From Candidatus Hodarchaeota archaeon (GTDB taxonomy: Archaea; Asgardarchaeota; Lokiarchaeia; Sigyniarchaeales; SOKP01): a stretch of 43,682 bases of DNA. This document shows, one piece after another, positions 2-2,801 of this stretch; within the stretch, counting starts at the first letter, position 1; each line of letters begins with the position of its first letter. The stretch is taken from the NCBI GenBank assembly GCA_048887225.1, contig JBHLJY010000021.1, forward strand, positions 1 to 43,682, written 5' to 3'. Both the position numbers and the translations under genes were made by a program. Below the pieces are notes generated by a model that saw only the letters and a program-made list of their open reading frames with translations, did not search any database and had not been told where the DNA came from.

Positions 2-1048
2 TCAGAAAGTAAAGATGTAGGAAGAAAAATTAGTTTTTTTGAGAAATTTCTTCCTGTATGGATTATATTATGCATGGCTCTCGGCATTTTTCTTTCTCAA
101 ATTATACCGGGCATAGGAGAAACGATTGATTCTTGGCAAATTAGAGGAATTTCAATTCCTATTGGAATTTGTTTATTTCTAATGATGTATCCCGCAATGT
201 TAAATCTCCAAGCGTCTGAGTTAAGAAAATTAGGGAAGAATCCGAAACCAATAATATTAACTTTAGTTTCTAATTGGATTATAGCGCCAATAACAGGGCT
301 GACTATGGCTATACTATTCCTAACAGATTTGCAGTTAATATTTGCGATTATTCTATTATCCAGTTCACCTTGTACTGCAATGGTTTTAGTATGGGGTTGG
401 ATGGCAAAAGGAAATCAGGAACAAAATGTAATAACGACTAGCGTAAATACAGCAACAATCATCTTTCTTTATATTCCAGTAATCTCACTCTTAGTGTTTA
501 TCGCAAATATTACATTAGAGAAAAAAATTCCTTTGGATCCTGTTATTCTATTAATTTCGTTATTTATTTTTATAGGACTTCCATTATTACTAGGGATAGT
601 TAGTAAGAAAGTATTGATTAGTACTAAAGGAGAAGTATGGTTTGACAATAAGTATAGACCCGCTGTTTCAAAAATAGCCATAGGAGCGTTATTGATGACT
701 TTAGTTGTCTTATTTTCTCTAAATGGAAACATTCTAATTCAGCGTCCTGACTTATTGCTACTTATAACAATCCCTCTACTATTAGGTTTTGCGATTGTTG
801 TCAGTATAAATCTCATAATCTCTAAATTAGCCAAGTTAAATTACCGAGAAGCAATTATCACTATTATTATTGGATCTTCAAGCCATTTTGAAATTGCTAT
901 TGCCGTTGCTGTTGCGATGTATGGAGTTGGTTCCATTGCTGCGTTAGGAACTACTATGGGCCTCTTCTGGGAGGTTCCAATTATGCTCTCATTAGTTTAT
1001 TTAGGAATATTTTTAAATAAAAAAGGTTTTTGGGAGAGTGAAAAATAA
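2..1048 (+). CDS. acr3: Acr3 family arsenite efflux transporter (5'-partial; the frame is open from the window start)
   Basis: Polytopic membrane protein with Acr3 motifs LMMYPAM, NWIIAP, PCTAMV (conserved Cys) and SSHFEIAIAVA. The frame upstream of 74 reads SESKDVGRKISFFEKFLPVWIILCM, a typical Acr3 N-terminus, so the real start lies before base 1. The stop overlaps the arsM start (TAATG). Confidence 0.93.
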   Translation, partial: SESKDVGRKISFFEKFLPVWIILCMALGIFLSQIIPGIGETIDSWQIRGISIPIGICLFLMMYPAMLNLQASELRKLGKNPKPIILTLVSNWIIAPITGLTMAILFLTDLQLIFAIILLSSSPCTAMVLVWGWMAKGNQEQNVITTSVNTATIIFLYIPVISLLVFIANITLEKKIPLDPVILLISLFIFIGLPLLLGIVSKKVLISTKGEVWFDNKYRPAVSKIAIGALLMTLVVLFSLNGNILIQRPDLLLLITIPLLLGFAIVVSINLIISKLAKLNYREAIITIIIGSSSHFEIAIAVAVAMYGVGSIAALGTTMGLFWEVPIMLSLVYLGIFLNKKGFWESEK

Positions 1049-1899
1049 TGAAAGATGAAGAAATAAAAAAGATTGTTAGAAATGGGTATGCGAAAATAGC
1101 GCAATCTGGAAGTTCTTGCTGTGGACCAGTGAATCCTTGTTGTGGAAGCTCTGAATCTGAAATAATTAAGGATATTAGTAGAAATATAGGTTATACTGAA
1201 GAGGAACTTAATTCCGTTCCAAAAGGAGCAAATCTTGGTCTTGGTTGCGGAAATCCTGTTGCACTCGCTTCAATAAAAGAAGGAGAAACTGTATTAGATT
1301 TAGGATCAGGAGCAGGTTTTGATGCCTTTCTCGCTGCTCAAAAGGTTGGACAGGCAGGAAAAGTTATCGGTGTTGATATGACCCCAGAGATGTTAACAGC
1401 CGCAAGGAAAAACGCTGAAGAGGGCAATTTTAAAAATGTTGAGTTTAGGTTAGGAGAGTTAGAAAATTTACCCGTCGCTGATACCTTCGTTGATTTAATT
1501 ATTTCAAACTGCGTAATCAATCTCGTACCTAGTAAGGAAAGAGTTTTTCAAGAAGCATTCCGAGTATTAAAGCCAAGAGGTCGTTTAATGATTTCCGATA
1601 TAGTCTTACTGAAAGAATTACCAGAATTCATAGTAAATTCTATGGAAGCTTATATCGGATGCGTTTCTGGTGCGATCTTAAAAGAAGAATATGTAAAAGC
1701 AATGAAAAATGCTGGATTTGAAGACATTAAAATTTTAGATCAAACTAGTTTTCCAATAGATGCCTTAACAATAAATCCAAGAGTCATGGAAATAATCAAG
1801 CAAATGGATATTTCAGTTGAAAAATTAAAAGATTTGGCAAACTCCGTTGTCAGCATAAAAGTTGAAGCAATCAAAAAAGAAAAATATATAGGTGATTAG
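1048..1899 (+). CDS. arsM: Arsenite S-adenosylmethionine methyltransferase
   Basis: SAM-binding VLDLGSGAGFD; catalytic-type Cys motifs GLGCGNP, ISNCVINL and GCVSGA; N-terminal SCC..PCC; translationally coupled to acr3. Confidence 0.95.
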   Translation: MKDEEIKKIVRNGYAKIAQSGSSCCGPVNPCCGSSESEIIKDISRNIGYTEEELNSVPKGANLGLGCGNPVALASIKEGETVLDLGSGAGFDAFLAAQKVGQAGKVIGVDMTPEMLTAARKNAEEGNFKNVEFRLGELENLPVADTFVDLIISNCVINLVPSKERVFQEAFRVLKPRGRLMISDIVLLKELPEFIVNSMEAYIGCVSGAILKEEYVKAMKNAGFEDIKILDQTSFPIDALTINPRVMEIIKQMDISVEKLKDLANSVVSIKVEAIKKEKYIGD

Positions 1900-1902
1900 A
1901 AA

Positions 1903-2355
1903 ATCAAGAAAATTAATCTGACTATTTTTGCTCCCGATAAAGAGTTAAATAATGGGGTTGAATATGTAATTCATATAAAAGATAACGGAACCATCATTGA
2001 TTTACTAAGAGATCTTGATAAAAAAATTTATGAAAAGCAGGAGAAATCTTATTTTCCCTTGTTTAAAGGTTTGATCCAAAGTTATCTTCAATTAATTTGG
2101 GATCCTCTAAATAATGTCATTTATGATGATTGTGCTGTGAATGCGTATGGTCCAAACAGAGAGTTTATACCTATTAGGGAAAATGTAAATTTTAATCTCT
2201 ACCCTGATAGTCAAATAACTTTGGTTGTCCATGCAGATTGATGAGCTGATAATATGGAAAAACGCCTAGATTTTGGATCATTTAAAACTATTTTACGAAG
2301 AGAATTCGGAAAAGACGATGAATCTTTTGCCCATTATTTTAAAAAATTAAAATAA
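1903..2355 (+). CDS. Putative selenoprotein, beta-grasp/MoaD-ThiS-like, with tandem Sec-Sec (TGA 2239-2241 and 2242-2244); start codon uncertain (ATC at 1903)
   Basis: Frame is open from 1900 to TAA 2353-2355 except for TGA-TGA: IKKINLTIFAPDKELNNGVEYVIHIKDNGTIIDLLRDLDKK...NLYPDSQITLVVHAD-U-U-ADNMEKRLDFGSFKTILRREFGKDDESFAHYFKKLK*. SD-like GGTGA (1891-1895) lies 7 nt before the ATC. A SECIS-like hairpin starts 5 nt after the TAA. The track ORF 2059-2241 is an internal fragment. The fold assignment is by eye only. Confidence 0.68.
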
Positions 2356-2358
2356 AAC

Positions 2359-2396
2359 GAATGAAATCTTTCAGAAAAAGCTAGTGAAAGATTGAC
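2359..2396 (+). ncRNA. SECIS-like element 1 (eukaryote/Loki-type), cis-acting in the 3' UTR
   Basis: AUGA (2361-2364), AAUCUUUCA (2365-2373), loop GAAAAAGCUAG, UGAAAGAUU (2385-2393), GAC. This gives a perfect 9-bp stem closed by a UGAN/NGAN core with tandem G.A pairs and an A-rich apical loop. Confidence 0.8.
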
Positions 2397-2443
2397 GATA
2401 GGTTTGCCTCCTAATATAAAATTGAAGTATATGAGTAATTAAT

Positions 2444-2656
2444 ATGATGTATACAAGTAATGTTAAATGTCCACATTGTGGGCATATAAATGAAACTAAA
2501 ATACCAGAAAAAATGTGATTAATGTGGATTAAATGTCAAGGTTGCGATAAAGTTATATGGGGACATGAAAATCCTCATGGCTGAAATTGAGTTTTGTGTA
2601 CTTATAGCGACATTCCTTGACTAAAACTCCAAGAAGAAATGGAACAAAAAAAATGA
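2444..2656 (+). CDS. GDCCVxC-family-like small Cys/Sec-rich protein with four putative selenocysteines
   Basis: MMYTSNVKCPHCGHINETKIPEKM-U-LMWIKCQGCDKVIWGHENPHG-U-N-U-VLCTYSDIP-U-LKLQEEMEQKK*. TGA at 2516, 2582, 2588 and 2618 (codons 25, 47, 49, 59). The layout matches the recalled family pattern CPxCG..MP..xC..xCxxC..GDCCVxCSY...CPPxQ. SECIS-like element 2 follows. Confidence 0.85.
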
Positions 2657-2662
2657 GATATT

Positions 2663-2700
2663 GAATGAAATCTTTCAAAAAATGCTGGTGAAAGATTGAC
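2663..2700 (+). ncRNA. SECIS-like element 2 (eukaryote/Loki-type)
   Basis: AUGA (2665-2668), AAUCUUUCA (2669-2677), loop AAAAAUGCUGG, UGAAAGAUU (2689-2697), GAC. It is identical to 2359-2396 at 35 of 38 nt, and all 3 differences are in the loop. Confidence 0.82.
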
Positions 2701-2801
2701 AAGAGGATTGTGTCCTTCTAATCATTTAATATAAACTATAAATTAAAAAATTTCATCGATTATGTGTACAGTGCTGTATTAAATAAGAAATATTGATTTT
2801 A

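Follow-up and report, generated by a model that had tools for sequence, protein, structure and literature searches.

The stretch analysed here (the window) comprises the 43,682 nt at the start of contig C21 (JBHLJY010000021.1) of a 3.27 Mb, 30% G+C Asgard genome (Candidatus Hodarchaeota archaeon, GCA_048887225.1). Its 5' end very probably carries an arsenic-resistance operon, acr3-arsM, extended by two selenoprotein genes, each decoded via its own 3' selenocysteine insertion sequence (SECIS) element. The product of the first gene (hereafter the UU protein) founds a widespread, previously undescribed family that is characterised by two neighbouring selenocysteine (Sec, U) residues and occurs mostly in arsenic-resistance clusters; the second gene belongs to the already known GDCCVxC/GOS_B family (hereafter GDCC) and carries four Sec codons. 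Feature coordinates are collected in Table 1.

Table 1. Features at the 5' end of the window
Feature	Coordinates	Strand	Remarks
acr3, arsenite efflux permease	2..1048	+	5' end missing a few codons (contig start); TIGR00832 262 bits, Pfam SBF
arsM, As(III) S-adenosylmethionine methyltransferase	1048..1899	+	NF008823 356.7 bits, cut-off 263
Putative Shine-Dalgarno-like GGTGAT	1891..1896	+	in the arsM 3' end, 6 nt before the putative ATC start
UU beta-grasp (predicted fold) selenoprotein, ~150 aa	1903..2355	+	Sec codons TGA 2239-2241 and TGA 2242-2244; stop TAA 2353-2355
SECIS element 1	2361..2395	+	type I eukaryote-like: AUGA / 9-bp helix / 11-nt A-rich loop / GA; 5 nt after stop
GDCCVxC/GOS_B selenoprotein, 70 aa	2444..2656	+	Sec codons TGA 2516-2518, 2582-2584, 2588-2590, 2618-2620; probable stop TGA 2654-2656
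SECIS element 2	2665..2699	+	stem as element 1; 47 nt after the 4th Sec codon of gene 2

The acr3 stop codon (TAA, 1046-1048) and the arsM start codon (ATG, 1048) overlap by 1 nt (TAATG), as described in the first-pass annotation of this DNA. The ArsM of the window contains no Sec, its translation shows the Cys motifs LGCG, SNCV and GCVSG, and its gene ends at a TAG (1897-1899). A full-length acr3 copy in a genome of the same genus was 96% identical to that of the window and had arsR upstream in divergent orientation, an arrangement found in most relatives; the arsR of the window itself probably lies just beyond the contig edge. With acr3 and arsM in the window and arsR divergent upstream in its relatives, the locus was classed as an ars operon. 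The two co-directional frames that had been reported downstream of arsM, broken only by TGA (two codons in the first and four in the second) and each followed by the same hairpin, were all located in their expected places.

Gene 1 continues the frame of arsM past its TAG and is open from position 1900 to its terminal TAA, broken solely by the tandem TGA TGA at 2239-2244. Numbered from position 1900, these codons specify residues 114 and 115, and a Cys at residue 78 is encoded by codon 2131-2133. Of 400 Asgard genomes searched with a profile, 136 contained the UU family, often as two tandem paralogues; within the taxonomic family of the window it was found in 117 of 134 genomes. In all 32 distinct DNA copies of the gene that were examined, the TGA-TGA pair was present in frame with a conserved downstream tail, and the terminal stops of these copies were TAA or TAG; long frames of this genome as a whole end in TAA (74%), TGA (14%) or TAG (12%). 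A large protein database contained 128 homologues from Asgard metagenome-assembled genomes and sediment metagenomes, most of which terminate exactly at the sequence HAD, which is to say at the TGA pair. A few that had been translated with TGA as Trp reveal the conserved tail of ~35-36 residues. A separate downstream open reading frame (ORF) encoding the tail was considered and excluded, because several copies have no Met after the dyad. No match to the UU protein was obtained in Pfam or NCBIfam, and a search of PDB sequences with the family profile returned none. The sole Sec-less homologue found has Cys-Val-Ser at the site, with Val-Ser at the dyad itself, so that no Cys aligns to either UGA. 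This homologue (L085:1274-2216) adjoins a NifU/IscU-like gene, and an Arf-family GTPase is encoded on the same contig.

Gene 2 starts at ATG 2444 and has Sec at codons 25, 47, 49 and 59. Its product matched the NCBIfam model NF041374 ('hypothetical protein GOS_B') at 46.7 bits with U read as Cys, above the cut-off of 40, and at 32.9 bits with the stops scored as unknown residues. The literal G-D-C-C-V-x-C motif is absent; in its place stands G-U-N-U-V-L-C, in which the ligand count is kept and one ligand is shifted by one position. Aligned all-Cys and 4-Sec Asgard forms conserve nine Cys/Sec positions, all of them kept in gene 2. U25, U49 and U59 align to invariant Cys of the all-Cys forms, and U47 immediately precedes the site at which the CC pair has lost its first Cys. 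Both CxxC pairs of the N-terminal zinc ribbon remain Cys. A structural model of the protein had a mean predicted local distance difference test score (pLDDT) of 84, and its Foldseek matches were weak and of zinc-ribbon type (eS27, MCM; E 0.3 or worse). The family was detected in 60 of the 400 Asgard genomes; forms with four TGAs, conserved in ~24 genomes, occur in the order to which the window belongs, and all-Cys forms in three other families. The earlier description of the second protein as GDCCVxC-like therefore holds in terms of its NF041374 score and its TGA codons aligned to Cys, and the family itself had already been catalogued as a selenoprotein: a 2026 review lists it as GOS_B with one Sec (PMC13188914), whereas the Asgard form has four, in the signature G-U-x-U-V-x-C. 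The alternation of TGA with Cys that had been anticipated for both genes was found only in gene 2, where three TGAs align to Cys; in gene 1 the sole Sec-less homologue has Val-Ser.

The TGA nearest the 3' end of gene 2 appears to be read differently from the other four. UGA 2618, a conserved Sec position, is 44 nt from the SECIS core and UGA 2654 only 8 nt upstream of it, and a further in-frame UGA is located inside the AUGA core; most relatives of gene 2 have TAA in place of UGA 2654. It seems that UGA 2654 must act as a stop and that the meaning of a UGA depends on its distance to the SECIS. Among 14 related 4-Sec genes searched, a SECIS-like hairpin was located 41-56 nt after the fourth TGA in 12 and 78 nt after it in one, and was not found in one.

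The two hairpins of the window share 9 identical stem pairs within 111 nt of surrounding sequence that is 82% identical, an agreement beyond chance. In form they match the type I eukaryote-like SECIS elements reported for Lokiarchaeia, which have an AUGA_GA core and an adenine-rich loop (PMC11227280). Across the whole 3.27 Mb genome 18 hairpins of this type were detected, 10 of which had a 9-bp stem and 11-nt loop behind an ATGA core. Two of these 10 were the window's own, and six were found 3' of classical selenoprotein genes, namely those for SelD, three VhuD/MvhD-like proteins, a Prx-like protein and a VhuU-like protein, 4-21 nt behind the frame or a few nt inside its end; all six frames contain UGA. 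In an alignment of 20 homologous SECIS elements, 95% of stem cells were paired and four pairs showed compensatory changes. The covariation score was reached by none of 500 shuffles, and controls slid along the alignment were 39-55% paired. An Rfam scan of the whole window returned no SECIS and no other family, as expected for Asgard SECIS elements. The assignment of the hairpins as eukaryote-like 3' SECIS elements is thus supported by their sharing with SelD, VhuD, Prx and VhuU genes, by covariation and by the published type I form.

The genome encodes the Sec machinery that decoding of these genes calls for: SepSecS (490 bits), a PSTK-like kinase, SelD with an in-frame TGA, and EFSec/SelB (249 bits), the last ~5 kb from SepSecS. 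No tRNA-Sec was found with ARAGORN, the Rfam model RF01852 or a strict home-made pattern. A search on the anticodon arm alone located a candidate ~70 nt upstream of SepSecS (L001:1278-1430; G000 contig C4:44554-44706), which was read by hand and has a 9-bp acceptor stem, 6-bp D and anticodon stems, the anticodon UCA, a long variable arm, a 4-bp T stem, a D-loop insertion and a ~31-nt T-loop insertion (intron). A T-loop intron has been reported in the tRNA-Sec of Lokiarchaeum (PMC4989117). Relatives also preserve both TGA patterns codon by codon, and the two frames can very probably be taken as genuine selenoprotein genes served by eukaryote-like SECIS elements of the Asgard kind, as the first-pass annotation had supposed.

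The start of gene 1 had to be reassigned. A Shine-Dalgarno-like sequence G(G)GTGAT is found 5-7 nt upstream of an aligned, putative start codon in the window and its relatives; this codon is ATC in the window, ATT in most relatives, and otherwise ATA or, in one relative, ATG, and an in-frame TAG is frequent just before it. From this alignment the gene most likely starts at the ATC at 1903, behind GGTGAT, and not at a canonical codon, and the pattern suggests AUU/AUC initiation across the whole UU gene family. Read-through of the arsM TAG, either as pyrrolysine or to give a fusion protein, was rejected, as the same TAG/Shine-Dalgarno/ATT arrangement occurs elsewhere with no arsM upstream. A frameshift from an out-of-frame GTG was rejected as well, as the direction of the required shift varies between genomes.

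An AlphaFold (AF2) model of the UU protein was of high confidence (pLDDT 92.8, predicted TM score 0.89). Its nearest structures were CysO (Z 7.4), SAMP1 (Z 6.6) and MoaD (Z 6.1 and 4.3), along with HVO_2177 and Urm1, and the best Foldseek match was Urm1 (E 5.6e-3). The model and its neighbours indicate a beta-grasp fold, in line with the earlier description of a beta-grasp protein with Sec-Sec, and do not by themselves establish family membership. By extrapolation of the alignment ranges, model residues 114-115 would correspond to the Gly-Gly that ends MoaD and SAMP1. An exposed stretch linking the beta-grasp domain to the tail bears the dyad, and pLDDT drops to 78 there.

Across the family the dyad is accompanied by a further Cys or Sec. 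Cys78 and HAD-UU occurred together in 113 sequences, and HAD-UU was never seen without Cys78. Where Cys78 is absent, a Gly-Cys directly precedes the dyad (GC-UU, seven sequences) or a third Sec stands two residues before it (U-G-UU, one sequence); one sequence has both Cys78 and a dyad-adjacent Cys. This pattern makes Cys78 a likely third ligand beside Sec-Sec. The As(III) sites of ArsD, ArsR and ArsM consist of three thiolates, and As(III) also targets the Cys-Sec pair of thioredoxin reductase.

The genomic neighbourhood links the UU gene to arsenic-resistance genes. In most of ~35 UU loci acr3 was found within the examined flank. The order generally seen, in complete as well as draft genomes, is arsR, divergent from acr3, followed by a Cys/His-rich gene (60-72 aa), a gene for a 96-aa CxC protein, the UU gene and its SECIS. 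Variant clusters have inserts, namely ArsM (the window and the same-genus genome), a CpaM/HgcA-like fusion, a second UU paralogue or a GDCC gene. In another family a homologue only 25% identical is located directly behind arsR, again divergent from acr3. The acr3/arsR link is strong for the window's clade and arsM is an optional module. Of the proposed synteny with acr3 and arsM, the first half was borne out, with arsR as an additional conserved partner; arsM is variable, its place being taken by the CpaM/HgcA-like fusion or by the two Cys-rich proteins.

Those Cys-rich proteins (e.g., the Cys/His-rich protein at L017:4442-4657 and the ~96-aa CxC protein at L017:4676-4963) are conserved between acr3 and UU in most relatives; both are absent from this window, and Pfam and NCBIfam gave no match for either. 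One genome encodes a fusion of ArsM with the 96-aa CxC protein (L080:421-1539), a Rosetta-stone arrangement that would tie this small protein to arsenic handling. The fusion of a CpaM-type methyltransferase to an HgcA-like corrinoid protein (554 aa, L081:490-2151) occupies the place of the window's ArsM in Asgard ars clusters and was also found between acr3 and the CxC gene at L036, L039, L040 and L045; it hints at corrinoid-dependent metalloid methylation in these clusters.

Gene 2 is less closely bound to arsenic. The 4-Sec gene has UU/ars genes as neighbours in four genomes, a methyltransferase in three further ones, and a frame for a pyridine nucleotide-disulphide reductase in four others (G264, G229, G227 and G236). 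One of these four reductases was scored as MerA (TIGR02053, 532 bits, L070:1449-3201) and has the 4-Sec gene directly upstream; two (L072 and L078) are 467-aa frames called by likeness, and the fourth (L071) is a 199-aa truncated frame with a Pfam match only. Beside MerA, the 4-Sec gene stands as a Sec-rich partner where bacteria have MerP or NmerA. All-Cys GDCC genes have unrelated neighbours and no ars genes. Membership of gene 2 in an ars operon, as first proposed, thus applies to some genomes, and elsewhere the gene is paired with MerA; from its neighbours the 4-Sec GDCC protein looks like a general soft-metal module.

These observations are brought together in a joint reading to which we give about an even chance: the UU dyad with Cys78 would capture As(III) for Acr3 and ArsM, and the GDCC protein would be a portable soft-metal(loid) module. 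Here ligand identity, As(III) binding and hand-off are what we infer, against an observed background of gene structure, recoding signals, conservation and synteny and a predicted fold. The UU protein would be cytosolic, with Sec-Sec terminating the last strand and a short helical tail as a cap. Sec114, Sec115 and Cys78 would form a three-ligand selenol/thiol site that captures As(III) and so spares cellular dithiols; selenols, being ionised at neutral pH, would hold As(III) more tightly than thiols. The captured As(III) would be handed to Acr3 for export and, in this genome, also to ArsM for methylation. The GDCC protein would be a zinc-ribbon mini-protein in which four structural Cys are kept and four of the five ligands of a second site are now Sec, and it would act as a movable unit for binding soft metal(loid)s, employed alongside MerA in other genomes.

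Several observations weigh against this reading. Gene 1 has no ATG, GTG or TTG start, its frame following directly on the arsM stop. The tRNA-Sec candidate scored only 20 bits on Rfam, below threshold, owing to its insertions. The fold Z scores of 6-7 (range 4.3-7.4) are middling by the tool's own calibration. The complementarity of third ligands represents only two to three independent clades, and the proximity of Cys78 to the dyad is deduced solely from beta-grasp topology, in which the strand start bearing Cys78 should adjoin the end of the last strand. Finally, deep UU homologues adjoin genes for CDF cation efflux, AOR/ferredoxin, prismane-type or NifU proteins and not ars genes, and the ancestral role of the UU protein may have been broader, in other soft-metal or redox contexts.

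A different function for the dyad, which we consider unlikely, is that of a redox enzyme or relay in which diselenide or selenenylsulfide cycling, comparable to that of the GCUG tail of thioredoxin reductase, reduces arsenate, As-thiol adducts or the disulfides that ArsM forms in turnover. ArsM requires a reductant, no recognisable arsC was present in the clusters seen, the dyad is on an exposed segment with the dip in pLDDT to 78, and known selenoproteins are mostly redox catalysts (PMC13188914). However, neither a thioredoxin-like nor a reductase fold is seen in the UU protein, nucleotide and flavin domains are lacking, its clusters have no conserved reductase partner, arsM is missing from most of them, and the three-ligand pattern suits metalloid coordination better than a two-electron pair.

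Somewhat less probable is that the UU and GDCC proteins buffer soft metals in general (Hg, Cd, Zn, Cu, Sb) and entered whatever resistance cluster each lineage possesses, with arsenic incidental here. This would account for the pairing of the 4-Sec GDCC gene with MerA in four genomes (in G236 by the truncated, Pfam-only frame) and with a methyltransferase in three, for the all-Cys GDCC forms that lack ars neighbours, and for the distant UU homologue that adjoins a CDF cation-efflux gene. For the UU protein it is opposed by the acr3/arsR link, which is near-constant over many genera for the HAD-UU clade and the tandem paralogue and recurs in a distant family.

The structural neighbours raise a third alternative, that the UU protein is a Se or S carrier of the MoaD/ThiS/SAMP type that delivers Se or S for As-Se or As-S species or for cluster assembly; we regard this as improbable. 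The predicted fold resembles CysO, SAMP, MoaD and Urm1 with UU at the Gly-Gly position, and the sole Sec-less homologue adjoins the NifU/IscU-like gene, but the ~36 residues past the dyad leave no free C-terminal carboxylate for adenylation, none of the clusters showed an E1-like activating enzyme, and there is no sequence similarity to the carriers. The view that the TGAs are ordinary stops of short ORFs or decayed genes, with the hairpins as terminators or repeats, agrees with gene callers ending the proteins at TGA and with the lack of a SECIS match in Rfam, but is scarcely credible when all six sites are strictly TGA and never TAA or TAG across dozens of genomes, amino-acid conservation continues in frame downstream of them, three align with invariant Cys, the hairpin type is common to SelD, VhuD, Prx and VhuU genes, and the Sec machinery is complete.

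Under the preferred reading, in which the UU protein captures As(III), ArsD is a close functional parallel. Like the UU protein under that reading, ArsD is small, cytosolic and encoded in ars operons, and has a vicinal chalcogen pair with a third ligand (Cys12-Cys13-Cys18); it binds As(III) and feeds an efflux system, a role for which a counterpart in the UU protein is proposed only. ArsD differs in having a thioredoxin-like fold and Cys only and in serving the ArsA ATPase, where the UU protein has a predicted beta-grasp fold, Sec-Sec with Cys, and Acr3 as its proposed pump. ArsD was not among the Pfam or NCBIfam matches of the UU protein, and the two have no sequence similarity. To our knowledge no chaperone has been described for Acr3. 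The C-terminal Gly-Cys-Sec-Gly of thioredoxin reductase is a high-affinity target of arsenite and likewise presents a vicinal chalcogen pair on a flexible segment, although as Cys-Sec and as part of a large flavoenzyme.

With the sulfur-carrier beta-grasp proteins (MoaD, ThiS, CysO, SAMP, Urm1) the UU protein would share the fold, as predicted at middling Z scores (4.3-7.4), and the placement of reactive residues ending the last strand, where those carriers have their C-terminal Gly-Gly. It differs from them in having neither the Gly-Gly nor a free C-terminus (the tail of ~36 residues being helical), in the lack of an E1 neighbour and in sequence, and is not a member of that group. Descent is another matter: a sulfur-carrier-like beta-grasp ancestor may have become a Se-based carrier in Asgard archaea, with UU substituted for Gly-Gly by means of one 3' SECIS, and been turned into a dedicated As(III) chaperone for Acr3, a scenario that we offer tentatively and think doubtful as a whole.

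Selenoproteins in bacterial arsenic and mercury contexts are already known. In the bacterial ArsM fusion selenoproteins (NF041536, NF041537) and the Sao/Hgc selenoproteins of Haft and co-workers, Sec likewise occurs in arsenic or mercury organometallic and resistance contexts. Those proteins have other folds, use bacterial SECIS elements within the ORF and carry Sec inside ArsM or fused domains, whereas the Asgard locus has separate small selenoprotein genes, 3' eukaryote-like SECIS elements and a Sec-free ArsM. Surveys of Asgard archaea list only ~7 selenoprotein families, all found by homology to known ones and none linked to metal(loid) resistance (PMC11227280, PMC13188914); the UU and GDCC genes were missed because the homology searches used known families. 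Among the papers covered, the Asgard selenoproteome surveys and the 2026 review describe no arsenic-linked, beta-grasp or GDCC selenoproteins in archaea, and nothing relevant was found in literature on GDCCVxC or on adjacent Sec residues. The first-pass suggestion that such an operon had not been described accordingly agrees with the Asgard selenoproteome literature.

The locus adds two selenoprotein families to the Asgard list, one of them (UU) found in roughly one in three of the Asgard genomes sampled. Two adjacent UGAs in one gene and four UGAs within 35 codons in the other are each served by a single eukaryote-like SECIS 41-120 nt away, and are useful for studying processivity and spacing in the archaeal-to-eukaryotic Sec system. 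The operon is also a candidate link between selenium and arsenic in detoxification, and the UU protein possibly the first chaperone of Acr3; if the scenario of a dedicated As(III) chaperone is true, the UU and 4-Sec GDCC proteins would make arsenic and mercury tolerance selenium-dependent in these archaea. Gene callers systematically truncate these genes, which is a warning for the annotation of such loci.

The remaining two of the 10 best hairpins in the genome (contig C14 near 30222 and contig C18 near 47774) are located behind frames of no assigned identity, one of which encodes a small, apparently membrane-anchored protein with G-G-G-U-G-C. Judged by these sequences, the two frames are possible additional selenoproteins that have not been listed before.

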